Shown here in pieces: positions 3,216-62,147 of a DNA stretch of 64,000 nucleotides. The translations under genes were made by a program, and so were the position numbers. The notes below the pieces were generated by a model. The model made no database searches. It was given only the letters and a program-made list of their open reading frames with translations, and was not told the DNA's origin. Positions within the stretch are counted from its first letter, which is position 1; each line of letters opens with the position of its first letter. Origin of the DNA: Patescibacteria group bacterium (GTDB lineage Bacteria > Patescibacteriota > Microgenomatia > Levybacterales > GWA1-39-11); the NCBI GenBank assembly GCA_035549295.1, contig DASZRG010000043.1, forward strand, positions 1,910-65,909. The letters run 5' to 3'.

Positions 3216-3470
3216 CTAAACGCTTTTTGCTCCTTCCTTAATAATTCCTATAACCTTAAAATTTTTATCGCGACTCATTGGTCTTGTTTGTTCAATTTTT
3301 ACGTTTTGACCAACCATAAGCGCCATTCCAGCAGTATCTGCTTTTAAGTTAGTTGTTCGTCTCAACATTTTTTTGTAAATAGGATGCTTTACAAATCTTT
3401 CGATCTCAACGACAACCGTATTTTGCATTTTTGTCGATTTTACTCTTCCGATAAATGTTTTTTTAGCCAT
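3216..3470 (-). CDS. rpsQ: 30S ribosomal protein S17
   Basis: The 84 aa ORF has an OB-fold S17 sequence (GRVKSTKMQNTVVVEIER) and sits in the S17 operon position. Confidence 0.9.
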   Translation of the reverse strand: MAKKTFIGRVKSTKMQNTVVVEIERFVKHPIYKKMLRRTTNLKADTAGMALMVGQNVKIEQTRPMSRDKNFKVIGIIKEGAKSV

Positions 3471-3528
3471 ATTTATTAGAAATTAGATACTAGAAATTAG
3501 ATACTAGGAATTTCCTAGTTTCTAGTCT
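3471..3528. repeat. Type B hairpin repeat at the S17/L29 junction
   Basis: TTAGAAATTAGATACTAGAAATTAGATACTAGGAATTTCCTAGTTTCTAGTCTCTAGTGACTAG. Confidence 0.75.
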
Positions 3529-3789
3529 CTAGTGACTAGTCTCTCCTTTCGCGCGTGATTTATTTTTTACTTTTTCTTCTTCAAAAACTTGCCCCATTTC
3601 TTTCAAAGACATGAAAGTCAAAACTCTTGCTATGTCTTTATTCTTGGCGCGTCGCGCATTCATGTTTTTTGCTTTTCCAAGTTTTTCCTCAATCGATAGC
3701 TTTGAAAGCTCTTCTCTCATGTCAAGAAGCGTGCGCTTCAACTCGTCTAACGTTTTCATTTTTAAATCTGCAATATCTGTTTTTTTCAT
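3529..3789 (-). CDS. rpmC: 50S ribosomal protein L29, with a lysine-rich C-terminal extension
   Basis: At 86 aa it is longer than the usual ~65 aa. It sits in the L29 position between L16 and S17 and has an L29-like helical N-terminus. Confidence 0.8.
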   Translation of the reverse strand: MKKTDIADLKMKTLDELKRTLLDMREELSKLSIEEKLGKAKNMNARRAKNKDIARVLTFMSLKEMGQVFEEEKVKNKSRAKGETSH

Positions 3790-3792
3790 AAT

Positions 3793-4209
3793 TTATAAAT
3801 GACCCCTTTTAATAAAGCTGCTTTTGACAGGAAGCTTGTAAGCTGCAAGTCTCAATGCTTCTTTTGCTATTTCCTCTGTAATTCCACCCATTTCAAAAAG
3901 AACACGTCCACTCTTAACTGGCGCAACATATTCATGTATGTCGCCTTTTCCGCCACCCATTCTAGTCTCCGGGGGTTTTCTAGTGATAGGTCTGTCTGGA
4001 AAAATTCTTATCCAGATTCTTCCCCCACGCTTCGTAAAATGAGTGATAGACTTTCGAGCAGCCTCTATTTGTCGGCTGGAAATATTTCCTGACGCGTCGG
4101 CTCGAAGCCCAAACTCACCAAACGAAACCTTGTTGCCGGCAAATGCTATTTGGCCAGCGACCTTTGGTTTAAATTGTTTTCTATATTTTGATCTTCTTGG
4201 CGTTAACAT
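3793..4209 (-). CDS. rplP: 50S ribosomal protein L16
   Basis: The 138 aa ORF shows the L16 signature [12 protein letters not shown] ... GGGKG. Confidence 0.95.
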
Positions 4210-4276
4210 AAATTTAGCTTTTAGCGTTTAGCGTTTAGGTGTTAGTTACTAATTGCTAACCCCTAACTGCCAACTG
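4210..4276. repeat. Type A hairpin repeat at the L16/S3 junction
   Basis: TTAGCGTTTAGCGTTTAGGTGTTAGTTACTAATTGCTAACCCCTAACTGCCAACTGC. Confidence 0.75.
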
Positions 4277-4915: not shown

Positions 4916-4989
4916 GATTTTTGGCTTATGGCAATTGGCTTTTGGCGGTTAGTATAAAAAACTAACTGCTAACCCCTAAACGCTAAGTG
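4916..4989. repeat. Type A hairpin repeat at the S3/L22 junction
   Basis: TTTTGGCTTATGGCAATTGGCTTTTGGCGGTTAGTATAAAAAACTAACTGCTAACCCCTAAACGCTAAG. Confidence 0.75.
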
Positions 4990-5442
4990 CTATTCGCTTT
5001 TCTCCTTTCTTACTCTTTTTGCTGCGGCTTTAATACCTGCAGTCAAACCTTTTGGCTTTGCTTCTTCGGCTGTTTCAACGGGCGCAACCGCGCGCATTGT
5101 GTCGCGAGTCTTACCATCTGCCAATATAACTCGTATGTGACTTGTTCTTCTTTTGTAGGGTCTGGTTCTTCCGCGACCAGCAAAATGAAAACGCTTCATT
5201 CCCACTCCACCGTCAACGATTATGTCTTTTATGGTCAGTTCATCTTTTTTAGCCTGAAAATTGTTGGTTGCATTAGCAACGGCTGAATCAAGTGCTTTTT
5301 TAATAGGGCCTGCAGCTCGCTTATTCATAACAGAAAGAGATGATAAAGCAACCATGAGCTTCTTCTCCTTTACGCCATCAGCAACCAAACGAACTTTTCG
5401 TGGCGATATTTTTATATTTTTTGCAATTGCTATATATTCCAT
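4990..5442 (-). CDS. rplV: 50S ribosomal protein L22, with a C-terminal Ala/Lys-rich extension
   Basis: The 150 aa ORF has an L22 core (ISPRKVRLVADGV) followed by an extra roughly 35 aa tail. Confidence 0.9.
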   Translation of the reverse strand: MEYIAIAKNIKISPRKVRLVADGVKEKKLMVALSSLSVMNKRAAGPIKKALDSAVANATNNFQAKKDELTIKDIIVDGGVGMKRFHFAGRGRTRPYKRRTSHIRVILADGKTRDTMRAVAPVETAEEAKPKGLTAGIKAAAKRVRKEKSE

Positions 5443-5518
5443 AATTCTAGATATTAGTGACTAGATATTAGATATTAGGAATTTGTTCTACTAGTTCCTA
5501 GTATCTAGTTTCTAATTA
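5443..5518. repeat. Type B hairpin repeat at the L22/S19 junction
   Basis: TCTAGATATTAGTGACTAGATATTAGATATTAGGAATTTGTTCTACTAGTTCCTAGTATCTAGTTTCTAATTACT. Confidence 0.75.
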
Positions 5519-16374: not shown

Positions 16375-16610
16375 AGCTATCTAAGTTACACAAGAGGGTT
16401 TAAGTTCACACAAAGATTGGCGAAGAAAAGGGTAAGAACTTATCGAGAATATCTAGATCAATACTACAAATAAGCAAATGAATTAAGAAACTCTAAAATG
16501 AATTAATATATAAATATTATTTCGAATTTATATATTTAACAATTTATAATTCATTTGAACTTTATCATTTGCATATTTGCTTATTAAAGCATGGCTCACC
16601 CTCATCCTAA

Positions 16611-16653
16611 CCTTCTCCCCTCAAGGGAGAAGGAAATCAAGGTTTTTTGATTT
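16611..16653 (+). promoter_or_regulatory. Two consecutive hairpins in the msrB upstream region (CCTTCTCCC-CTCAA-GGGAGAAGG, then AAATCAA-GGTTTT-TTGATTT)
   Basis: Perfect inverted repeats are read directly. They overlap the -35 region of the extended -10 promoter at 16663-16671. Confidence 0.35.
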
Positions 16654-16677: not shown

Positions 16678-17070
16678 ATGAAATATAATGACCTTACGGA
16701 TGAAGAGAAACACGTTATTGAGGATCGGGGCACTGAGCGCGCGTTTACGGGTGAATATGACGACTTCTATGTTCCGGGGACTTTTATATGTCGTAAATGC
16801 AATCTCCCTCTATTCTCATCAAAAGCAAAATTTGATGCTGGATGTGGATGGCCGGCGTTTGATGATAATTTTCCAAATGCAATTCGTCGCATGGCTGACC
16901 CTGATGGTGAGCGCACTGAAATAGAATGCGCGAATTGCGGAGCACATCTTGGACATGTTTTTGAAGGTGAGCAGATGACTGAGAAAGATACTAGGCACTG
17001 TGTAAATTCACTTTCTATTCGCTTTGTTAAAGAAGGCGATAAAATACCTCCCACAATAACTGAAGAATAG
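16678..17070 (+). CDS. msrB: Peptide-methionine (R)-S-oxide reductase MsrB, cytoplasmic form
   Basis: The ORF carries two CxxC pairs (CRKC, CANC), the motif GCGWPAF and the catalytic RHCVNS. Confidence 0.9.
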   Translation: MKYNDLTDEEKHVIEDRGTERAFTGEYDDFYVPGTFICRKCNLPLFSSKAKFDAGCGWPAFDDNFPNAIRRMADPDGERTEIECANCGAHLGHVFEGEQMTEKDTRHCVNSLSIRFVKEGDKIPPTITEE

Positions 17071-17098
17071 TTGATATAATTTTTCTCCCAGGTCTTTT

Positions 17099-17662
17099 TT
17101 GTTTATGAAGAAGAAAATGTCGTATGGCAAGTTGTTTTCTATATTTCTCGCTGCCGGCTGGGCCTTTGGAGGCGGCTTGGGAGTAATTTTTGAGATGGAA
17201 AAACAACTCGTACACAAGCACCATTTCCTAAGTAAAAAAGAATTTATGTCTCTTTTTGCAATAGGACGCGTCGTTCCAAGTGGAACAGTCACGGCCATTG
17301 CGATCGCCGTCGGCTACAAATACAAAGGGCTTCTCGGAACTTTAGTTGCGCTTCTCGGGGTCATGATTCCAGGTTTTACAATAACTTTGATACTCGCCGC
17401 GCTCTATACTGTTTTTAAACAAAATAATTATTTTGAAATAATAAATGCCAGCATTATGCCAGCGGCAGTAGGCCTCATATTCCTCGCAGCAGTAAATATG
17501 GGAAAAGACGTTTTTCATTCACCGCTTCTTATTGCGTTCGCTCTAGCAGCATTTCTCGCGACCATGCTTGGCATGAGCGTTACACTTGTCATTGGACTCG
17601 GAGCACTACTTGGAATTGTTCTTTTCTCACAAATAAAGGAGGGTCATGATCTCCCTTATTAA
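17099..17662 (+). CDS. chrA: Chromate transporter ChrA family, N-terminal-half homolog (short-chain CHR)
   Basis: A 187 aa polytopic membrane protein with ChrA-like sequence. It is paired with a second half-size paralog immediately downstream. Confidence 0.75.
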   Translation: MFMKKKMSYGKLFSIFLAAGWAFGGGLGVIFEMEKQLVHKHHFLSKKEFMSLFAIGRVVPSGTVTAIAIAVGYKYKGLLGTLVALLGVMIPGFTITLILAALYTVFKQNNYFEIINASIMPAAVGLIFLAAVNMGKDVFHSPLLIAFALAAFLATMLGMSVTLVIGLGALLGIVLFSQIKEGHDLPY

Positions 17663-18179
17663 TCTCCTTTGGATATTTGTAGTCGATACAGTCATAACTT
17701 TTGGAAATGGCCCAGTCATACTACCGCTTCTCAATCAATCCCTAGTTCAACAGCTTCATGTTATCTCAAGCGATCAACTTCTTTATGCATATGCAATAGG
17801 AAGAGTAACACCCGGGCAGGTAAATCTTTATATTGCAGCTGTTGGATATTTTCTTTTTGGACCAGTGGGTGCAGTTTTATCCTCTATCTCAATAATTCTT
17901 CCTGGATTTTTGATGATTCCAATGGTCGCATGGTATGAAAAATTTCACAAAGTATCGATCATCAACAATCTAATAAAAGGAATAACAGTTGTATCAATCG
18001 GACTGATATTTACAGCAACAGTTGCCATCGGTCAGGATGTTTTGAAAGGAGTTAACACCTGGATCGTTTTCCTATCAGTTATTGTTTTTAACAGAGTATT
18101 TAAAATAAACGGCTTCCTGAGCTTCATCGCCGGAAGCGTACTGGGAATAGCAATCTATTTCTTCCCCCTCCACCACTAA
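17646..18179 (+). CDS. chrA: Chromate transporter ChrA family, C-terminal-half homolog (short-chain CHR)
   Basis: A 177 aa polytopic membrane protein. It overlaps the upstream partner by 17 nt, as is typical of short-chain CHR pairs. Confidence 0.75.
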   Translation: MISLINLLWIFVVDTVITFGNGPVILPLLNQSLVQQLHVISSDQLLYAYAIGRVTPGQVNLYIAAVGYFLFGPVGAVLSSISIILPGFLMIPMVAWYEKFHKVSIINNLIKGITVVSIGLIFTATVAIGQDVLKGVNTWIVFLSVIVFNRVFKINGFLSFIAGSVLGIAIYFFPLHH

Positions 18180-18236
18180 ATTACCCAAGCTTGACAACTA
18201 CCACTAAGAATTGCAATCCGATATAATTCATTTCAA

Positions 18237-18794
18237 ATGGATTCATCACCTGACTTAAAAGAAGGAAGAGGCTTAACCAGTTCTATTGATTTCTCCAGGG
18301 CACCGACTGAAATTCACGGCTATAGCTTCGGCGAACCTATTGATAGAAGTAATTATACAAGCTTTCTTATTGACGATTTCAAAAGATCAAGAGGAAAAGC
18401 TGCAGCACAAGTATATTCGTGGGAATGGATGAAAAACCACACTGGTGTAGATATTCCACGTTTATTAACACAATTTGTGCAAAGTGGTGGATTAAGCGTA
18501 TTGACCCCCGAAGAATCTTCAAGAGTTTTACAAGAATTTAGTAGAGAAGGTAGACACAAAAGAACAATAAATCAAATATCATATGAGGAAGATAAATCTT
18601 TTTCATCTCATCTATCCAAACAAATAATGGATGTTGTAAAAATACATAATAATCAAGGGAAAGCAATTATATTAAACGGACAAGATCATCAGGTCGGAGT
18701 AATTGATGAGAGCGTAATAGGAATGAGCAGAGATGACTTTCTGAAATGGCAGGCCACGGATGCTCAAAAAGATGAGAGCCTCTTAAGAGGATGA
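18237..18794 (+). CDS. Hypothetical protein (185 aa)
   Basis: Clean ORF with no recognised motifs. Confidence 0.5.
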   Translation: MDSSPDLKEGRGLTSSIDFSRAPTEIHGYSFGEPIDRSNYTSFLIDDFKRSRGKAAAQVYSWEWMKNHTGVDIPRLLTQFVQSGGLSVLTPEESSRVLQEFSREGRHKRTINQISYEEDKSFSSHLSKQIMDVVKIHNNQGKAIILNGQDHQVGVIDESVIGMSRDDFLKWQATDAQKDESLLRG

Positions 18795-18805
18795 CCCCAT
18801 AATCT

Positions 18806-18850
18806 TAATTGATGTAGACTTAATTTTTGTCGGGGACAAATTTGAGGGCT
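18806..18850. repeat. Direct repeat copy 1: duplicated msrB 3' end (last 9 codons, ALKFVPDKN-stop, plus about 15 nt of 3' UTR)
   Basis: The 31 nt core at 18820-18850 matches 19849-19879 with one mismatch, and similarity extends back to 18806 and 19834. Confidence 0.8.
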
Positions 18851-18856
18851 GATTTT

Positions 18857-19753
18857 TTATTGTTCATTTGCAACTCTTTCAAGATCTTGACCATTAATCT
18901 TGCCCATTTTAATACTATCTGTTACAAGTCTATTTGAAGGATTTGCTGTTTCTAGGATCACTTCTTCAGTTACGCGCACACCGAATTGACCTAATTTATC
19001 GGTTAGGTTTCTGTGAGTATCTCCTATTGTAATTAGAACCTTTAGCTGTCCCAAACTTAATTTTTGAAGTAAATCTGGATCTTTTTCGACTAAGGACGCT
19101 ATTTGTTGACCAAATTGACCTACCATAAACCATTCCCTTAAAGACTCAAATGCAACTGTATTTATAATTTTAGCCTTTTCCACTTCTGAGCCTTGTCCAG
19201 TAATTCCATAAATAACATCTCCTTGCTCTATCATCCCGCTTCTTAACTCATCTCCCTCTTCATTATCTACATCAAAAAAGCTTACTCTTGTCTGTGTGCC
19301 AGAAATTGCATCTGCAATTCTGCGATTAAAGGGGTACTGAACAAAATCTTGAACATCCCTATTATCCTGTGCCGATTCACCCGTATCTGCAAGAAAATCT
19401 AAACCTTCTTGTAAATTTTTAGTCCAGCCAAGTCCTTCAAGTAAATAGATATCTGCATCGCTAACTTGCTGCTCATAGCTTTGGTCGCCTAATTCCTCAG
19501 GCGTAGCATGTCTTCCGTATCTAATATGAGTATGGATACCTTGACCAAATTCACTTAAGAACTGGTAACCCTGGCCTAATTCTTCATCTTCTTGCAATCT
19601 ACTAGGAGGCACCAAAGGCGAAATTCTCTCTTTCTTTTGTGGTTCTTGAATAACATAATCTCCGTTTTCCTTAAAAAAGGAATTATTATGCCATGCCACT
19701 TGCGCATCAAGTCTACTATGTATACCTTGCTCAGCTGTATCGTCAATACTCAT
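18857..19753 (-). CDS. Hypothetical acidic protein (298 aa), flanked by the msrB 3'-end direct repeats
   Basis: Clean ORF. A TGTTATATT -10-like element lies 5 nt upstream of its ATG. Confidence 0.5.
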   Translation of the reverse strand: MSIDDTAEQGIHSRLDAQVAWHNNSFFKENGDYVIQEPQKKERISPLVPPSRLQEDEELGQGYQFLSEFGQGIHTHIRYGRHATPEELGDQSYEQQVSDADIYLLEGLGWTKNLQEGLDFLADTGESAQDNRDVQDFVQYPFNRRIADAISGTQTRVSFFDVDNEEGDELRSGMIEQGDVIYGITGQGSEVEKAKIINTVAFESLREWFMVGQFGQQIASLVEKDPDLLQKLSLGQLKVLITIGDTHRNLTDKLGQFGVRVTEEVILETANPSNRLVTDSIKMGKINGQDLERVANEQ

Positions 19754-19833
19754 GTTCTCAATATAACATAGGTTTTATATAAAGATTTAAAAATTCTAGA
19801 ATTTAGCTTAAAATTGTAACACTAAAGGAATTT

Positions 19834-19879
19834 GAATTGATTTATATATTAATTTTTGTCGGGGACGAATTTGAGGGCG
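19834..19879. repeat. Direct repeat copy 2: the functional 3' end of msrB2
   Basis: See copy 1. This copy encodes the actual C-terminus of the 19849..20397 gene. Confidence 0.8.
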
Positions 19880-20397
19880 ATGGAATTCATGCAATAGCGC
19901 TTGCCTGTGGGCTGTGGGCCATCGTCAAAGACGTGGCCCAAGTGGCCGCCGCATTTATCAAGAACTTCTATTCTTGGCTCGCCAGGAATACTATCATCTT
20001 CGCGAAGGACTAATGCATCAAGCTTAATAGGTGCCCAAAATGATGGCCAGCCAGTACCGGAGTCATATTTTTGCTCAGAGCGGAAAACAGGCTCGTTACA
20101 ACCAACGCTGTAATATGTTCCTTTTCGAGTCTCGTGATCTAGCGCTCCAGTAAAGGGCACTTCTGTCCCGGCCTGCCTGAGTATATTGAACTGCTCAGGA
20201 GTCAAGATTTTTTTCCACTCGGCGTCAGACTTGAACTCTGATTTGTCGAAGGATCCGGAGATGATCTTGGCGGTGCTCGCTGAGTTAGAGGTATTAGGAA
20301 TGTTAGTATTGTTAGAAACGAACCTTAGATAAACTAAAACACCGATAAGTACGAAAGCGACTGCGATAAAGGGTAGCTTGTTTTTCATGATGAGCAT
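19849..20397 (-). CDS. msrB: Exported or membrane-anchored MsrB (peptide-methionine (R)-S-oxide reductase)
   Basis: An N-terminal TM or signal segment ([17 protein letters not shown]) is followed by an MsrB domain ([24 protein letters not shown]). Confidence 0.85.
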
Positions 20398-20615
20398 TTA
20401 CCTCCTGGTGCGCAAACGCCCCGGGGCATACTTGATGGCGATGCATGCGAACAATTTTCAACATTATCACACAAAAGCTTGGGTTTGCTGTGAATGAGGG
20501 CTTGTCTGTTGTTTATCTTCTGACTTAGAAAGAATAAAACCAAAGCAGAAAATATGATTAGAAGAAATAAAAATAAGTTGTTGTTTGATTTATTTTTTTC
20601 CTGCTTTTTCGTCAT
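20385..20615 (-). CDS. Possible small membrane protein (76 aa) with a Cys-rich C-terminal tail
   Basis: The ORF lies between the CcdA-Trx gene and msrB2, with one TM segment and a CDNVENC ... CAPGGKC tail. It overlaps the msrB2 start by 13 nt and has no homology support. Confidence 0.25.
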
Positions 20616-20800: not shown

Positions 20801-22582
20801 TCAGCCAAATGTAAAAGCAAACACTTGAATTCCTGGGGAGAATTCGAGATGCAGTAAGTGTTGGCCAGGTTTACCATGAAGATTGATCAAATCGTAAAGG
20901 CGATCTTGATCTATTGTCACAGTACCGTTTTTAACATCCGCGCCTGAACTCGAATCATCGACTACCTTACCATCCATCAGCACCTTAACGGATCCATTTC
21001 CGCTCGCCGGCTTGTGCATGACAAGATATACATGTTCTGCGGAAAACTTGTATTCCAAAACTGCATTATTACCGGTAGTTGAGTCTTCATCAGCAACTTG
21101 CCAGTTTCCACCAAAATTAAATGAATTAACCGGAATATCAGGTGCAAGATTTAAGTTTTTTTGATTGCCATTATTTATTGATCCATTTGGATAATAGTAT
21201 TCCATTCTTGAGGTACCAACATAAGTCTCAGGTGAAATCTCCTCAGTCGGGGTCTGGTCGGGCATATTAGATAGAGAGCCAGATATTTTTGCTCCCGATT
21301 CTTTTAGAAGCTCACGTATCGCTTCTTCTGACTGGTCATATTCTCCTTCACCAAAATGAGTTCTTCTGACTACTCCATTTTTGTCTATTAGATATTCCGC
21401 TGGCCAATATTGATTTGAGAAAGCATTCCAAGTCGCATAATCGTTGTCCTGAGCAACTGGATAGTGAATATTGTATTGCTTTATTGCATTTGCGACGTTT
21501 GTCGTATCATGCTCAAATGCAAATTCTGGGGTATGAACACCTATTACAACAAATCCATCATCTTTATATTTGTCATACCACGAAGTGACAAATGGCAGTG
21601 TGCGAATACAATTTATACAGGTGTATGTCCAGAAATCTATAAGAACAACTTTTCCTCGAAGATCTTTGAGTGACAGTACCTGCCTGCCGGCAGGCAGGTT
21701 CAGCCAATGATTTATACCAGTTATTTCTGGTGCCGGATAATTTTCATTGAGCAGACCATTAGTGCTTGGAGAAGTTGGCATCGGACTAAAAGGTTGTCCC
21801 ACAATATTTTTGTTTTGACTATTCCCTTTTATACTGTTCAGCTGAGATGTAACCGCAGAGTTGCTTTCGATACTAGTTATGAAGTTTGAATATGAAGGAA
21901 TAGCATTTAGAAGGTTTGCTTCAAGAACTTTGTCATAATTTGAAAATATGAGGAGTGCTGTCGCAATAATTATTACTCCAAAAATTTTCTGGAGATTTCC
22001 TGTATATTTATTAAGTGATCTACTCTTTTGCACAAATCTTTGTCCGGCGTATGAGAAAAGAAACAGTGGAATTCCAACACCTACAAGATAAACAAAAGTT
22101 ACAAGAATAATACTTGCCCCAACTGTGCGAGTCGCAGAAAGCGTTGCAATAGTTGCAAGAATTGGACCTGCACATGGAGCCCAAACAACACCTAGCGCAA
22201 GACCCGAAATAAAACCAGGTAAAAAGCCTCCCGCGAAGCGGGATCCGGCTCCGCCGGATAATTTTCCTGCAAACCCAGACACAAATCCCTCGACAATTCT
22301 AGTCAAGCTTGGAATAACCATTGTTGCACCCAAAAATAGAAGTATTAGAACAGCAACAATTCTTAAAATATTTGGATCAAAACCAAATAATTTAACAAGA
22401 TACGAAATTGATAAAGTTATAAAACCGAAAGAAAGAAGTATTCCAAGTGTTAAACCGAACGGTCTTCTGTGATCACCTCCGGCTGCCGCAGATGAGAGAA
22501 CAATAGGAAGGAGAGGCCATATACATGGGGCAGCAATCGTTACCAGACCAGATAGAAATGCAAAAAACAAAAGAATAACCAT
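20801..22582 (-). CDS. Fusion of a CcdA/DsbD-type thiol-disulfide transporter with a TlpA/ResA-like thioredoxin domain
   Basis: The N-terminal polytopic region has a conserved Cys (AAPCIWPLLP, WAPCAGP), as in CcdA. A thioredoxin fold (LIDFWTYTCINCIRTLP) follows, then an Asn/Ser-rich C-terminal domain. Confidence 0.8.
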   Translation of the reverse strand: MVILLFFAFLSGLVTIAAPCIWPLLPIVLSSAAAGGDHRRPFGLTLGILLSFGFITLSISYLVKLFGFDPNILRIVAVLILLFLGATMVIPSLTRIVEGFVSGFAGKLSGGAGSRFAGGFLPGFISGLALGVVWAPCAGPILATIATLSATRTVGASIILVTFVYLVGVGIPLFLFSYAGQRFVQKSRSLNKYTGNLQKIFGVIIIATALLIFSNYDKVLEANLLNAIPSYSNFITSIESNSAVTSQLNSIKGNSQNKNIVGQPFSPMPTSPSTNGLLNENYPAPEITGINHWLNLPAGRQVLSLKDLRGKVVLIDFWTYTCINCIRTLPFVTSWYDKYKDDGFVVIGVHTPEFAFEHDTTNVANAIKQYNIHYPVAQDNDYATWNAFSNQYWPAEYLIDKNGVVRRTHFGEGEYDQSEEAIRELLKESGAKISGSLSNMPDQTPTEEISPETYVGTSRMEYYYPNGSINNGNQKNLNLAPDIPVNSFNFGGNWQVADEDSTTGNNAVLEYKFSAEHVYLVMHKPASGNGSVKVLMDGKVVDDSSSGADVKNGTVTIDQDRLYDLINLHGKPGQHLLHLEFSPGIQVFAFTFG

Positions 22583-27881: not shown

Positions 27882-29675
27882 TTAGTCTCTTGTTGCGTCG
27901 GCAACATGTTCTTCTTCCAGGCGGAAGATACCTTCATCAAGTCTTTTTTGATCAAGGAAATGGGAGATAAATCCAATTGAGCGGGATGCGACAAAAATTG
28001 CGTTAAAGAATTCAATATCTACAAGCTGCTTTAATTCATCAACTGAATAGCCTTCCTTTTCTGATAATAAATCAAGAAGTACCGCAGCTATTGATCCATC
28101 TATATTGAGAATGAGATTTCCCTTTTTCGCAACTGTTACTTTTTCTATTTCTTTTGCAAATTTTGTGTACTTGGCATCAAGTCCTTCTGTGAAAGACAGA
28201 ACTTCAGCAACACGCGGATCTGGAATATCAACTCTATATTTTCTGTGACCTATTCCTGAAATATATTTTTTATTTGCCGCAAATTCTTCAACAAACTTTG
28301 ATGCATCAACATCTCGTTCAACACCCATCACAAAATTTGCTGCTGCTTCATTTATGGCCCCTCCAAATCGTGGACCTATTGTTAAAATTCCTGTAGCTAG
28401 TGACGACACAAGATCGCGTCCTGCGCGTGCTGTAATAATGGTATTAACTGCACCTGATACATATGGACCATGGTCAACAAGAAGTTTGAGAACAAAATTC
28501 ATAAAATCTTCGAGTTCTTGTGACTTGATTTTTTTTCCAAGAAACATTGAGGCAACAACGTACCCAAACGAGTGATTTTTTGAAAAACTCAAAAGTTCTT
28601 CACCCACTATTTTGACACTTCCACCATCATCCCTTGAAATACTTGTTGATATAAGTCCATGTTTTCGACTGTCCATATCATCTATTATAGCCTGTTTCTC
28701 ATCATTTTCTTCCGATAACTCCTGAGGTATCTCGCTCATCATTTGCACAAATTCAGAAAAGCTTTCTGCGACATGAACTCCGGCGTCCCTCAGAGCATCT
28801 CGTTTGGCGCGAGCTGTCTCGCGCGCGTTTGCCGCCATTGCTTTCGCATGACCAAATTGCGGAGCTGTTGGGAAAATTTCAGCAACGGTTCCCGCAATAT
28901 AACAATAAACAGGTTTTGTAAGTTTTCCGCTTTGTATAAGTTCACAAACTCCATATTCATCCGTTCCACCTAGCTCTCCAAAATAAACTATATACTCAGT
29001 TGCCGCATCATTTTCAGCCGCAAGGAATGCTTCTTTTGGTGGAGTTGCAGGAAATCTTTCACCTCCGAAATGGAGCGCAAATGAAATATTTTTCTTGTGT
29101 TGTGCAAGAATGTTTATAAGCTCATTCGTTGTCCCACCTGATGCTGAAAAAACCGCAATGTTACCTCGCTTAAATAAGCGTGCATCAACCAGTTGTCTAT
29201 GCGTAACTCCTCCGATAGCACCAAGTTTTACAATATTCGGAATAATAAGTCCCACCGATGCTGGACCGATGATAAATATATTTTTCGCATCGGCAAGAGT
29301 CTTAAGATCTATCGCATGTTTTTCTGGAACACCTTCTGCAAAAACAGTACCGCCAATAATCGACGGTAATTTTTCAATCGCGTCAGCCGATGAAACAAAA
29401 GCGCGTCTACCCGATGAAACATTTATAAAATATGTGATAGCCTCACGAAGATCACTTGGGATTTTTGCAACTTCAGAATAGACGGGAATTAAAATTTCTT
29501 TTTTTCCAAAAAAGTATCTCTCAAATCGACGGCCCGCAGCAACAATTCCAATAATCGATGGTTTAGTATTTCCCGATGTAAATTCAAAATCTAGAATTGA
29601 TTGAATTATCGACGGATAAGATCCGATGAATAATATTTTTTTGTCTGAACTGATTATTTTGTCTATGCTGATCAT
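27882..29675 (-). CDS. aclA: ATP-citrate lyase subunit A-like protein (succinyl-CoA-synthetase-alpha-like CoA-binding domain plus citrate-synthase-like citryl-CoA lyase domain)
   Basis: Alignable blocks to ATP-citrate lyase include KEILIPVY, IIGPASVGLI, the phospho-His loop QFGHAKAMAA, HGPYVSGAVNTIITARAGRDLVSSLATGILTIGPRFGGA, GIGHRKYRVDIPDPR, KKGNLILNIDG and FISHFLDQKRL. Confidence 0.85.
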   Translation of the reverse strand: MISIDKIISSDKKILFIGSYPSIIQSILDFEFTSGNTKPSIIGIVAAGRRFERYFFGKKEILIPVYSEVAKIPSDLREAITYFINVSSGRRAFVSSADAIEKLPSIIGGTVFAEGVPEKHAIDLKTLADAKNIFIIGPASVGLIIPNIVKLGAIGGVTHRQLVDARLFKRGNIAVFSASGGTTNELINILAQHKKNISFALHFGGERFPATPPKEAFLAAENDAATEYIVYFGELGGTDEYGVCELIQSGKLTKPVYCYIAGTVAEIFPTAPQFGHAKAMAANARETARAKRDALRDAGVHVAESFSEFVQMMSEIPQELSEENDEKQAIIDDMDSRKHGLISTSISRDDGGSVKIVGEELLSFSKNHSFGYVVASMFLGKKIKSQELEDFMNFVLKLLVDHGPYVSGAVNTIITARAGRDLVSSLATGILTIGPRFGGAINEAAANFVMGVERDVDASKFVEEFAANKKYISGIGHRKYRVDIPDPRVAEVLSFTEGLDAKYTKFAKEIEKVTVAKKGNLILNIDGSIAAVLLDLLSEKEGYSVDELKQLVDIEFFNAIFVASRSIGFISHFLDQKRLDEGIFRLEEEHVADATRD

Positions 29676-29747: not shown

Positions 29748-30935
29748 TCAGGATGACAAACTTATAATTGCTTCACCTACAATATCTGACACCACAAATT
29801 CCGGGCCATGAACTGCACCTAGTAGCTTATTTTCATCTAAGAATTTTCTCATAATCTCAAGGCCTTCTTTCTGATGTGGACCACCGCGTCTTACAAAAAC
29901 TTTAACTCCTTGCTCTTGAAGATCTGGTACGACATCCGATATAGCACGAATAACTCCCAAAAAAGTCGTTCTAATATCTGTAAAGTTTGCAACTCCTCCA
30001 CCGATAATTAACACCTTTTTCTTCGCCTGAGATTTTAAAAGTAGAGAAAGTAAATTTTTTGCATAGAGAAATGTCTCCTCTTCAGTCGGATTTCCAGAAT
30101 ACTCTCCATAGTTTGCAAGTTCTCCACCATATCCAAGACTCTGGACTTCATCTGCCAGCATTACACTCACTCCTCCACCTGAGAGCAACATAAAAATAGA
30201 ACCATTAGGATTGAGAACAGTTAGCGTAAGCGACGATGAACTTTTCTCGGCAACTTTTGCAATATTTTTCTCTTCCTCAGTTTTATCAAGCTTTGCGGAT
30301 CGGATATCGTGACTACTCCAGTTATCGACAAAAAATTCAGCAGCCGAATCTACTTCACTTGCTATATCAAGCATGAACGGTGTCTTAAAAGAAATAACAA
30401 GAGGATTTATCTCAAGGAATGAAAAATAATTTATTTCAAAAACTTCAATTATTTTGGTAAGAAAGTCAGGACTTAATTCTATTTTTGACGCGACTTCTTC
30501 TATATCTTTTGGATCTGTAATCAGATGTTTTTTTACTTCATGCTCATACGCTTCAACATCAACTCCACCCTTACTTGAGTAATAAAGGACAGTCCCCTCC
30601 CCCGCTCTCTCAAGTGCAAGATAGTGTTCTTCTGAATCTTCATGAGCTATCATTTCCTCAATCAAAAAATGAGAATATCCTTTTTTACTCAGTTCTGAAA
30701 CTGCATCTATTATGTCGTTTGCTTTTTCAAGATCAAGTTTTATAAGTCCTTGTTTAAATCTCTTTTTAATTCCTTGATCAACTTTAACAACGTATTTTTT
30801 ATCGGTCTTTACTGAATCTTCGATCTTTGAAATTGGATCATGATCTATCGTGAAAGGGAAACCAGAATATGGTGTTTTGAGATGATTGTTGACGATAGTT
30901 TTTGCGCGAAATTCGGATAACTTTACTCGTGGCAT
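29748..30935 (-). CDS. aclB: ATP-citrate lyase subunit B-like protein (ATP-grasp, succinyl-CoA-synthetase-beta-like)
   Basis: Blocks matching the ACLY N-terminal half include YLEINPLV, LTVLNPNGSIFMLLSGGGVSVM, ELANYGEYSGNPTEEETFLYAKNLLSLL, KVLIIGGGVANFTDI and VFVRRGGPHQKEGLEIM. Confidence 0.85.
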   Translation of the reverse strand: MPRVKLSEFRAKTIVNNHLKTPYSGFPFTIDHDPISKIEDSVKTDKKYVVKVDQGIKKRFKQGLIKLDLEKANDIIDAVSELSKKGYSHFLIEEMIAHEDSEEHYLALERAGEGTVLYYSSKGGVDVEAYEHEVKKHLITDPKDIEEVASKIELSPDFLTKIIEVFEINYFSFLEINPLVISFKTPFMLDIASEVDSAAEFFVDNWSSHDIRSAKLDKTEEEKNIAKVAEKSSSSLTLTVLNPNGSIFMLLSGGGVSVMLADEVQSLGYGGELANYGEYSGNPTEEETFLYAKNLLSLLLKSQAKKKVLIIGGGVANFTDIRTTFLGVIRAISDVVPDLQEQGVKVFVRRGGPHQKEGLEIMRKFLDENKLLGAVHGPEFVVSDIVGEAIISLSS

Positions 30936-31766: not shown

Positions 31767-31912
31767 GAGGATATTATATCAGTAAGGAGAGTTGGGGGAG
31801 TAAGGTAAGTTAGGGGTTAGTAATGACGTTGGGATACGGAAGAGATTCTGAAACAAGTTCAGAATGACGACGTTGGATGGTCAATTGTCAGTTGTTAATT
31901 GTCAATTGTAAA

Positions 31913-36663: not shown

Positions 36664-38154
36664 TTGGAATTTATCAAATTGGAACAATTACTAAGCTCTA
36701 AATTTTACAAAAAACATAGCTACGAAATCATGGTCGTAGCAATAATTCTGCTCGCCATTTTTCTTCGCTTCTACAACTATTCAGGCCGCTTACTACTTGC
36801 TGGAGATCAAGCACGCGACGCAATAATTGCCCAAGAAATAGTAAACGAACACAAGATTCCTGCTGTTGGTCCATTTTCATCAGTCGGTAACTTCACAACC
36901 GGAAACATTTGGTACATATGGCTTGGATTTTCAGCGGCTCTTATTCCTACTTTCGAAGGACCTTGGATAATTCTTACCCTGTCCTATATCACGATAGTAA
37001 TTTTGATGATAATTATTGCAAGAAACATAGGCGATAAGTCCTTTTCACTGATAGTCGGACTTTTGGCGGCAGTTTCACCAGCCGAAGTTGCCCAAAGTAC
37101 CAATCTTACTAACCCATCTCTTGTAGCAGTATTTTCGGTTTTAACGCTACTGTTTGCACTGCTTTATTTAAAAAAGGGTACAAATTTATTTTTGTTTTTG
37201 GTTGCCTTCTTTATAGGAGAAGCGATAAGTACGCATTTTCAAGCAGTCTATCTTCTTGTATTAATTCCAATAGTTCTTGTTGTTAAAAGACCAAAGTTAT
37301 CTGGATTTGTTTATTTAGCAATTGGACTTATTATTCCATTCATTGCCTATTTTTATTTTGACTTCAATCACAACTTCTACAATATTCGTGGAATCATTGA
37401 CTATGTAAGATTCGGCCAATATAGAATATACATTGCAAATCGATGGCTTACATACGCAGCCGTTTTTTGGCCCGACATGTGGGGAAAAATAATCGGTGGG
37501 AACAAACTATTCGGCTATTTGTTTATGGCCCTTGTAACGCTCTCCACAATCTATTCACTTCTTAAAAAACAAATTAACAAACAATTGCTATCCGTCGTTG
37601 CAACTTTTGCAATCGTTTTTGTTGCGCTTCGATTTTATCGCGGAGAAAGATTTGATGGATATTTTGTATTTTTACATCCATACGTATTGTTATTGTCTGC
37701 ATTCGTAATCTATTTTATTTACAAGTTAAACAAATATTTAGGACTGCTTATTTTATTTCTTGTATTAATCTTTAGCATAAATGCAAGTTTACCTGCTCTT
37801 TTCGATAAACAAACAGAAGTAAATAAAGGCGAGTATTGGAGCAACGTTTTTATAAAAGATTTTCCTGATAAAAAATTTGAGTTTTATCAATTCACAAATA
37901 GCAATGAATCGCTAAGTCTTCCAATAGTTATTAATCTTTATAAAAAAGGCAAAATTCAAGATGGTGGATATCGAATTGGTTTTGGAGGTCCAAAACCTGC
38001 GGACAGAAAAAATTATGTTTATCTAAAAGACAATAAGTTAGGATTTGACCTATGGAGTCTAAATAGTAGTAGTTCTGCGCAGCTCATAAAATCCGGCTGG
38101 CACAAAGCAAATCCTTCCTCAATATATAAGGTGTCGGCGGAGTGGTATAAATAA
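36664..38154 (+). CDS. Polytopic membrane glycosyltransferase-like protein (GT39 / ArnT / PMT-like fold)
   Basis: The 496 aa ORF has more than 10 TM helices. An extracytoplasmic-loop motif AGDQARDAIIAQEIV resembles the DE/DD loop of GT-C mannosyltransferases. Confidence 0.5.
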   Translation: MEFIKLEQLLSSKFYKKHSYEIMVVAIILLAIFLRFYNYSGRLLLAGDQARDAIIAQEIVNEHKIPAVGPFSSVGNFTTGNIWYIWLGFSAALIPTFEGPWIILTLSYITIVILMIIIARNIGDKSFSLIVGLLAAVSPAEVAQSTNLTNPSLVAVFSVLTLLFALLYLKKGTNLFLFLVAFFIGEAISTHFQAVYLLVLIPIVLVVKRPKLSGFVYLAIGLIIPFIAYFYFDFNHNFYNIRGIIDYVRFGQYRIYIANRWLTYAAVFWPDMWGKIIGGNKLFGYLFMALVTLSTIYSLLKKQINKQLLSVVATFAIVFVALRFYRGERFDGYFVFLHPYVLLLSAFVIYFIYKLNKYLGLLILFLVLIFSINASLPALFDKQTEVNKGEYWSNVFIKDFPDKKFEFYQFTNSNESLSLPIVINLYKKGKIQDGGYRIGFGGPKPADRKNYVYLKDNKLGFDLWSLNSSSSAQLIKSGWHKANPSSIYKVSAEWYK

Positions 38155-38266
38155 GAGTATCACGAGTAATTACAATCGTTTAAAGTTATTGGGTAACGAA
38201 ACCCGTATCGGTGAAGTTTTACGTTTAACATACCCCATTGACGAAACGGGCATCGTAACCGATTAA
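38155..38266 (+). repeat. Roughly 110 nt dispersed element, copy A. It starts with GAGTATCACGAG and directly abuts the stop codon of the GT39-like gene
   Basis: About 85% identical to the reverse complement of 53462-53573, including an identical 18-mer CAATCGTTTAAAGTTATT and an identical 22-mer ACGAAACGGGCATCGTAACCGA. Confidence 0.85.
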
Positions 38267-38276
38267 CTTAGATAGT

Positions 38277-53388: not shown

Positions 53389-53461
53389 ATTTGATTACTA
53401 TCAGACTACGAGTAACTAGATACTAGAGAATAGTAACTAGAAGTCTCCAGTTATTAGTTAG

Positions 53462-53573
53462 TCGGTTACGATGCCCGTTTCGTTTTTGGGTTACGTTAAA
53501 CGTAAAGACTTAACCGATACGGGTATCGTTACCAAATAACTTTAAACGATTGGAATCGCCCTTGATACCCTTA
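53462..53573 (-). repeat. Roughly 110 nt dispersed element, copy B. It is inverted relative to copy A and directly abuts the alaS stop codon
   Basis: The reverse complement aligns with 38155-38266 at about 85% identity. On the alaS strand it begins GGGTATCAAGGG immediately after the TAG stop. Confidence 0.85.
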
Positions 53574-61472: not shown

Positions 61473-62147
61473 TTACATTACAATAAATTCTCTTAGAGGG
61501 CAATCTGCGTGTTTACATGAAGCTTTACAATAAGTTCTACCATACCAAATAAGTCCCAAGCCAAATTCTCGCCAGTCTTTTTGTGGAACAATTTCCATAA
61601 GATCTTTTTCAATTTTTACAGGATCTGAATTTTTTGAAAGACCAAATAGATTTGATAAACGCTTAACGTGAGTATCAACTACTACACCTTCTGATTTACC
61701 AAAGGCTTCTTGCAAAATTACGTTTGCAGTTTTGCGACCGATAAAAGGAAGCTCTAATAATTCCTCCATCGTCTCAGGCATTTTTCCTTTGTATTTTTCC
61801 GCAACAATATCTGCTGCATTTTTGATAGCTTTTGATTTTCCTTTATGAAAATTTATACTCTTAATATCAGTGTCAAATTCTTCAAGCGATGCTGTTCGAT
61901 AGTCTTCAAGCTTTTTATATTTCTTAAACAACGACTCAGTAACTTTATTCACACCAACGTCTGTCTGTTGAGCCGAAAGTGCTACAGCAACATATAACTC
62001 CCACGGATTACTATGATTAAGTGGTGTTTTGGCGTGAGGAAAAAGTTTTTTTAATTGAGCACTTATCTTTTCAGCCTTTTGTTTCTTGTCCATATCGCAA
62101 TTGTCATTCTGAACTTGTTTCAGAATCTCGTCTAGGTCCTGAATCAA
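61473..62147 (-). CDS. nth: Endonuclease III (HhH-GPD DNA glycosylase/lyase with a 4Fe-4S cluster)
   Basis: The helix-hairpin-helix motif LPFIGRKTANVIL is followed by the C-terminal cluster ligands C-x6-C-x2-C-x5-C (CKASCKHADCPLREFIV). Confidence 0.9.
   Translation of the reverse strand: MIQDLDEILKQVQNDNCDMDKKQKAEKISAQLKKLFPHAKTPLNHSNPWELYVAVALSAQQTDVGVNKVTESLFKKYKKLEDYRTASLEEFDTDIKSINFHKGKSKAIKNAADIVAEKYKGKMPETMEELLELPFIGRKTANVILQEAFGKSEGVVVDTHVKRLSNLFGLSKNSDPVKIEKDLMEIVPQKDWREFGLGLIWYGRTYCKASCKHADCPLREFIVM

Follow-up and report, generated by a model that had tools for sequence, protein, structure and literature searches.

Chromosomal hotspots that are free of mobile elements and diversify by recombination at their flanking core genes have been documented (Oliveira et al. 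2017, PMC5635113). Homology-facilitated illegitimate recombination has been described in naturally transformable bacteria (de Vries & Wackernagel 2002; Prudhomme et al. 2002; here as they are cited in PMC6382021). In streptococci, decayed integrative elements known as CIMEs, 1.2-13 kb long, occupy the 3' ends of fda, rpsI and rpmG and have kept their attL and attR sites (PMC7563491, PMC5704250). Here we describe a locus that recalls all three, found in a 64,000-nucleotide stretch of a Patescibacteria group bacterium (assembly GCA_035549295.1, contig DASZRG010000043.1, positions 1,910 to 65,909; hereafter the window). In this locus, two copies of a 30-nucleotide (nt) sequence, which is the 3' end of a gene for an exported MsrB, bracket a gene for an acidic protein of 298 amino acids (aa). 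The repeat is, with good confidence, an insertion scar of some kind. As to its origin, we tentatively favour recombination that added the 298-aa gene to a mobile-element-free hotspot and used the msrB 3' end as homology or junction, an explanation to which we give slightly less than an even chance.

The copies lie in direct orientation, 1029 bp apart from start to start, and window positions 18820-18849 and 19849-19878 are identical at 29 of 30 positions. The consensus is TTAATTTTTGTCGGGGAC[A/G]AATTTGAGGGC, in which A/G is the sole differing position. The copy at 18820-18849 reads TTAATTTTTGTCGGGGACAAATTTGAGGGC, the copy at 19849-19878 carries an A to G change, and the mismatch is a synonymous difference in a Phe codon (TTC/TTT). 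The features of the locus are listed here by position.

16678..17070, plus strand: cytoplasmic MsrB, the conserved right border of the slot
17071..19848, no strand: variable slot between two convergent msrB genes, with chrA1, chrA2, the 185-aa gene, the orphan msrB tail and the 298-aa gene
17099..17662 (chrA1) and 17646..18179 (chrA2), plus strand: split chromate-transporter pair, slot occupants not present in the slots of relatives
18237..18794, plus strand: 185-aa hypothetical gene, a lineage-specific slot occupant
18801..18819, minus strand: weaker extension of repeat copy 1, pairing with 19829-19848 (14 of 20 columns match, one gap)
18820..18849, minus strand: repeat copy 1, an orphan msrB 3'-end fragment that is part of no gene and off-frame relative to the 298-aa gene
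18857..19753, minus strand: gene for the 298-aa acidic protein, alone between the copies and full length compared with its homologues
19754..19848, minus strand: DNA upstream of the 298-aa gene, including a sigma-70-like site identified by consensus match
19822..19834, minus strand: 13-mer CAAATTCCTTTAG, found at equal offset past the msrB stop in the related locus L093; the duplication does not include its last 7 nt
19829..19848, minus strand: extension of repeat copy 2 in the gapped alignment, the 20 nt of msrB 3' flank nearest the stop
19849..19878, minus strand: repeat copy 2, the true last 9 codons (ALKFVPDKN) and stop of exported MsrB; ALKFVPDK- is kept in relatives
19849..20397, minus strand: exported or membrane-anchored MsrB of 182 aa, with a SelR domain and an N-terminal hydrophobic segment; the conserved left border of the slot

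Measured from the stop codons of its neighbours, the orphan copy begins 7 nt past that of the 298-aa gene and lies 25 nt from that of the convergent 185-aa gene. An earlier description of this locus, made from the letters alone (the sequence-only reading), had reported a near-identical pair with a single mismatch, and our alignment agrees apart from end coordinates that were off by 1; its assignment of the second copy to ALKFVPDKN and the stop of msrB is borne out by the open reading frame (ORF) at 19849..20397 on the minus strand. It had also noted weaker similarity beyond the 30-mer, and gapped alignment indeed lengthens the match to 18801-18853 versus 19829-19881 (54 columns, 85% identity). 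Over the 19-20 nt downstream of the msrB stop, the copies are more alike than random pairs when the comparison is anchored (P about 0.004-0.008), with an unanchored P of 0.15 for the same extension. On the other side of the 30-mer, toward the msrB body, similarity is at chance level (P about 0.45). An ORF survey upheld the further statement that just the 298-aa gene and its promoter lie between the copies: the sole ORF of at least 60 aa wholly between them is the 298-aa ORF, save two short ORFs nested inside it. It is followed, before copy 2, by 95 nt of upstream DNA that holds the promoter-like site (-35 GTTACA at 19820-19815, a 16-nt spacer and -10 TAGAAT at 19798-19793).

The repeat itself is real. 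Searching the 64-kb window for the 30-mer with up to 3 mismatches returned the two copies and no others (0 expected), and 100 dinucleotide-preserving shuffles of the window gave no match. Moreover, a Logan contig (L002, run SRR12170510) is 100% identical to the window over 3709 bp and covers both copies, which makes an artefact of one assembler unlikely. We considered whether the repeat is no insertion footprint at all, being either a functional 3' element (a terminator, stability or regulatory motif) placed after two genes or an assembly chimera. Synonymous sites in the msrB tail show conservation between lineages, as those of a functional element might, and the source is a metagenome-assembled genome. 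However, the worry that the repeat is a common 3' motif is answered by its count of two in 64 kb; on neither strand does the repeat fold better than shuffled sequence (z between -0.24 and +0.28), and there is no terminator-like site and no Rfam match at the repeat. A chimera is opposed by the Logan contig, assembled at k=31 and identical across both copies, and by the mismatch, which leaves exact matches of 18 and 11 nt that are not long enough to mislead assemblers. We therefore hold both forms of this explanation to be very improbable.

The confinement of strong similarity to the gene end also bears on whether the orphan is all that remains of a second, tandem msrB paralogue that lost its body by replacement or deletion and kept its last 30 nt. 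Tandem exported-type msrB genes do occur in Patescibacteria (loci L013, L014 and L016), but those paralogues are about 45% identical to each other and not 97%, no msrB similarity continues beyond the 30-mer (P 0.45), the 298-aa gene is intact with its stop 7 nt from the fragment, and the syntenic relatives have a single exported msrB. Such a relic would be a most unlikely origin for the repeat.

Comparison with related genomes placed the repeat in a variable slot. The gene order lipo15-dsbD-orf76-msrBexp > slot < msrBcyt-hyp179-PIG-L...tuf-S10 is common to four related Patescibacteria genomes, whose DsbD and EF-Tu proteins are 72-74% and 91-94% identical to those of the window, respectively. 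Two further msrB homologues (P0071 and P0047) were rejected as comparison loci, being not syntenic. The slot is occupied as follows.

L095 (GCA_964651815.1), L095:5535-5545: empty, 11 bp between the stop codons
L004, L004:5571-5852: a 78-aa ORF
L090, L090:2680-3421: a 219-aa hypothetical gene
L093 (GCA_964616095.1), L093:5574-6758: a 354-aa methyltransferase gene
This window, 17071-19848: the 298-aa gene and, on the opposite strand, the 185-aa gene and the split chrA pair

The five genomes thus show five states of the slot, with occupants unrelated to one another, and the gene adjoining exported msrB is always co-oriented with that msrB. The slot is a small gene-turnover hotspot between convergent msrB genes. 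Because all four syntenic relatives lack the 298-aa gene, and the slot of L095 measures 11 bp, it is clear that the 298-aa gene was added; the 185-aa and chrA genes are additions too. These comparisons support the insertion proposed by the sequence-only reading but not the empty allele that it predicted, with msrB directly beside the 18237..18794 gene, which the databases searched do not contain. That simple pre-insertion allele was the wrong expectation because the slot holds the 185-aa and chrA genes, too, as lineage-specific content. The 185-aa protein has one homologue, at 49% identity and in another context, and the search for msrB outside this genome yielded nothing above 77% full-length identity.

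The slot resembles the hotspots of Oliveira et al. in having conserved flanks (exported and cytoplasmic msrB), five contents in five genomes, one of them empty, and no mobility gene that we could find. It differs in one respect: the published model is a clean double crossover that leaves no scar, whereas here an orphan tail of a flanking gene lies inside the slot, which points to an imprecise or single-crossover event. As for a possible excess of recombination in the flanks, identity along dsbD-msrB shows no step, but exported msrB has an aberrant GC content at third codon positions (GC3; z +4.2).

The msrB tail is conserved among lineages at the DNA level (40 of 42 nt are identical between the window and L095), so it could be used as a short homology, and an orphan tail matching at 29 of 30 positions could stem from a close relative instead of an intragenomic copy. 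The distribution of differences between the two copies is also informative. The core differs at 1 of 30 positions and the adjoining flank at 6 of 20 columns (Fisher P 0.012), and such uneven divergence is easier to reconcile with two orthologous tails than with a duplication that aged uniformly. The sequence past copy 2 runs ...AATCAATTCAAATTCCTTTAG, and L093 has AATCCAAATTCCTTTAG at equal offset after the msrB stop. The resemblance to the L093 msrB flank covers about 27 nt past copy 2, including 7 nt beyond the duplicated part; this last match suggests that the DNA there is native msrB flank, unlike what a plain target-site duplication predicts.

These observations weigh on a second explanation, a long target-site duplication of 30-53 bp, in which the msrB 3' end would have been opened by staggered nicks or a double-strand break and then filled in at either side of a 1-kb fragment captured there, whether by transposition-like or by end-joining repair. 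In its favour, the copies are direct repeats that adjoin the target, they enclose a single complete gene together with its upstream region, and the similarity of the anchored 3' flanks (P about 0.005) fits a duplication that was originally longer and identical. Against it stand the uneven divergence (1/30 in the core versus 6/20 in the flank) and the 7 nt past the duplicated part of copy 2, which should be insert DNA yet match the L093 msrB flank, although with modest significance. No transposase, terminal inverted repeat or second example was found, and known transposon target duplications are far shorter than 30-53 bp. A long target duplication is therefore unlikely, though it is not a negligible candidate.

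Mobility genes and recurrence were sought both in the window and beyond it. The sequence-only reading had seen no integrase, transposase or terminal inverted repeats, and the more systematic searches concur: a Pfam scan of about 45 ORFs across the 64 kb detected no integrase, transposase or other recombinase, and no inverted pair joins 18850-18870 with 19828-19848. Gene tables of relatives' loci list no mobility genes either. There is also no attC-like structured imperfect inverted repeat at the 3' end of the segment. A second copy of the locus's own msrB tail (up to 7 mismatches in 30) was absent within 5 kb on either side at all 80 msrB loci examined in species-representative genomes, and none occurs in the three filled slots of close relatives. 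Neither duplications nor msrB relics flank the homologues that the 298-aa and 185-aa genes have elsewhere, and the exact 26-nt core of the repeat does not occur in viral and metagenome contig collections. The duplication event is unique to this genome. The suggestion that other copies of the 298-aa gene would be flanked by duplicated 3' ends of their neighbours was consequently not borne out, and the mobile cassette with a long target duplication gains no support, since neither the homologues nor other msrB loci carry such duplications. Recombination at a short homology, which the sequence-only reading had offered as its alternative, is in our judgement the best fit.

Described mobile elements differ from the locus in several features. 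Transposons and insertion sequences characteristically make target duplications of about 2-15 bp; here the duplication is 30 (possibly 53) nt, with no transposase and no terminal inverted repeats. Integron cassettes have an attC site, a neighbouring IntI/attI and usually no promoter, whereas this segment has no attC, no integrase was found and the 298-aa gene has its own promoter-like site.

A closer parallel is offered by CIMEs, in which direct repeats containing a housekeeping-gene 3' end likewise surround a short integrase-less cargo (about 1 kb here). The locus could be a decayed site-specific integrative element of this type, with its integrase lost or supplied in trans and with copies 2 and 1 as attL and attR. 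Its arrangement of direct repeats is a hallmark of such elements, high identity is limited to the core with partial similarity outside, and an imperfect palindrome within the 30-mer, AAATTTGTC-CCC-GACAAAAAT, might serve as a core-type site. On the other hand, the palindrome is merely the codons for K-F-V/D-K-N and forms no stable structure, no recombinase was found within 64 kb, and no second tail exists at about 85 msrB loci, the three occupied close-relative slots included. The 26-nt core is likewise missing from the viral and metagenome collections, and the 298-aa family has no link to phages or plasmids. Moreover, the streptococcal CIMEs adjoin or derive from recognisable families of integrative and conjugative elements or integrative and mobilizable elements and recur at one att site in many strains, in contrast to msrB, where we found no related element, recombinase or recurrence. 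We consider a decayed element of this kind rather unlikely.

A more speculative version is a minimal, integrase-less single-gene mobile cassette that has the 30-bp msrB tail as its attachment site. Such a unit, about 1 kb with a promoter and one gene, could excise and re-integrate at the msrB 3' end between Patescibacteria genomes, driven by a recombinase in trans (for example, a host Xer-type enzyme) or by RecA. If this were so, the single-gene occupants of the relatives' slots would be older cassettes whose distal site had decayed. We regard this version as distinctly improbable.

We return to recombination at the msrB tail, which the clues above favour together with the missing mobility gene. 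Under this explanation, the 298-aa gene with its own upstream region would have entered the slot between the conserved convergent msrB genes by one of two routes. In the first, a single Campbell-type crossover would have occurred with a DNA molecule bearing an msrB tail beside the 298-aa gene. In the second, the event would have been one-ended: DNA from a close relative with different slot content would have been anchored homologously in a flanking core gene, and its other end would have been joined illegitimately. Both routes would leave one intact msrB plus an orphan tail of about 30-50 nt where two slot contents meet. The 298-aa gene would have arrived after the chrA/185-aa block, or the block after the 298-aa gene. 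Its donor was probably a close relative: the codon usage of the 298-aa gene is typical of this genome (GC3 0.25, z -1.0), in keeping with a donor whose composition was much the same. The join was probably the work of host recombination functions rather than of a dedicated recombinase. Both kinds of event are on record. The second route has its counterpart in homology-facilitated illegitimate recombination, in which foreign DNA is gained beside a conserved gene without a mobility gene, and one junction is homologous while the other is arbitrary, here 7 nt past a stop and 33 nt before the msrB stop.

Several observations weigh against recombination at the msrB tail. The databases searched hold no allele in which msrB adjoins the 185-aa gene or the 298-aa gene adjoins msrB. 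Sliding identity to the relatives along dsbD-msrB reveals no recombination tract and is flat at about 0.7-0.8. At the putative illegitimate junction, the match is at most a 3-nt ATC that is offset by one base (ATCAGCCCTC versus ATCGCCCTC), so that the clear 3-10 bp joint microhomology of homology-facilitated illegitimate recombination is not evident. A homology of 30 nt is at the lower limit for a RecA-dependent crossover. Additionally, the P value for rate heterogeneity between core and flank rises to 0.12 if flank sites are allowed twice the core rate, and the local alignment of the 60-nt flanks of the window and L093 is of modest significance (P about 0.03). The evidence for the recombination mechanism is thus suggestive rather than decisive. 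We regard the locus as a fresh instance of a known, ordinary recombination event; nothing points to a new mobility mechanism, and no new kind of mobile element is revealed. The locus shows, at nucleotide resolution, the gain of a single gene in a very small, streamlined Patescibacteria genome without visible mobile elements, and it offers a concrete place in which gene gain by recombination can be tested in uncultured bacteria.

The 298-aa protein belongs to an unnamed and undescribed family of about 290 proteins. A word-indexed search with this protein found three homologues at 41-49% identity, in other contexts and none adjoining msrB, and an exhaustive profile search recovered 288 relatives at E <= 1e-3. 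Among 50 family members tested, none had a convincing Pfam domain (DUF3479 in one member, E 0.0024, is marginal). Sequence searches with the 298-aa protein against Pfam, NCBIfam, PDB (sequence profile), PHROGs and PADLOC gave no match, nor did searches of phage and plasmid collections (tblastn) and viral contigs; a metagenome scan for homologues returned a single short contig that was already known. PHROGs, PADLOC and NCBIfam likewise gave no match for the 185-aa protein or for the 179-aa protein.

The AlphaFold2 model of the 298-aa protein has a pLDDT (predicted local distance difference test) score of 96, and its fold matches include EreA-like 2rad and 2qgm, ChaN 2g5g, HopBA1 5t09, EreC 6xcq, RRSP 5w6l and TraB protein 8bqs, with the related 3b55 as the best Foldseek match. 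The protein therefore appears to share the alpha/beta fold of the EreA/ChaN/TIKI-TraB superfamily but differs from it in having no sequence-level match in Pfam, NCBIfam or PDB, and the fold alignments span 141-175 residues, about half of the 298-aa chain. Residues H82, D101, E106, D161, R206-E207 and G244-x-x-H247 are conserved in the family. The modelled fold makes the protein a putative hydrolase; it is cargo and not a recombination enzyme.

The possibility that the 298-aa gene is compositionally foreign was ruled out, and the compositional anomaly sits in msrB itself. The codon usage of exported msrB is the most atypical among the 57 genes of the window (GC3 0.50), and its last 30 codons reach a GC3 of 0.77; orthologues in relatives have values of 0.29-0.41. 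An imported allele or a local bias are possible causes. Between dsbD and msrB lies a 76-aa ORF (20385-20615, minus strand) that overlaps the msrB start and has a basic N-terminus, one hydrophobic segment and a Cys-rich tail. It is weakly conserved at the matching position in L090, L093 and L095 (44-51% over 32-43 aa).

Within dsbD, at 21678-21699, there is an in-frame, GC-rich perfect palindrome, ACCTGCCTGCCGGCAGGCAGGT, which encodes LPAGRQ. Its 18-mer also occurs in dsbD of L004 (4080-4098) and in L006 (2263-2280), and a one-base variant forms a 21-nt in-frame insertion within exported msrB of L004 (5487-5505). It is possibly a small palindromic element that can enter coding sequences. Upstream of cytoplasmic msrB, in its divergent promoter region, Rfam gives a single sub-threshold CRISPR-DR57 match (16600-16637, minus strand; 24.4 bits versus a gathering score of 39, E 0.04), probably by chance.

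The window as a whole is core chromosome, with ribosomal protein genes of the S10 cluster, tuf and fusA, and probably also rpoB and rpoC, judged by position and size. The gene fusA is parted from tuf and the S10 cluster by about 20 kb of non-ribosomal genes (11860-31912). The dsbD-msrB cluster adjoins tuf-S10 in L093 and L095 too. The 20 kb include an ATP-citrate-lyase-like pair (27882..29675 and 29748..30935); to our knowledge, such genes seem unusual for Patescibacteria.

Other repeats were also seen in the window. A palindrome-containing motif of 27-30 nt, GAGATTCTGAAACAAGTTCAGAATGAC, occurs twice in inverted orientation, at 31839-31868 and 62103-62132. One copy lies downstream of fusA and 73 nt upstream of a gene for a metallo-beta-lactamase (MBL)-fold protein, and an HhH-GPD glycosylase gene has the other copy at its start; the motif may be a shared operator. 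An inverted repeat pair of 118 nt with 86% identity (53456-53573 and 38152-38268) is almost wholly intergenic, with alaS as the neighbour of one copy and a cyclophilin gene as that of the other. Finally, two families of AT-rich repeats of about 45-70 nt occupy intergenic gaps of the ribosomal-protein operon, at the following positions.

AT-rich repeat family one: 2198-2268, 3468-3538 and 5440-5509
AT-rich repeat family two: 2697-2761, 4207-4274 and 4935-4983

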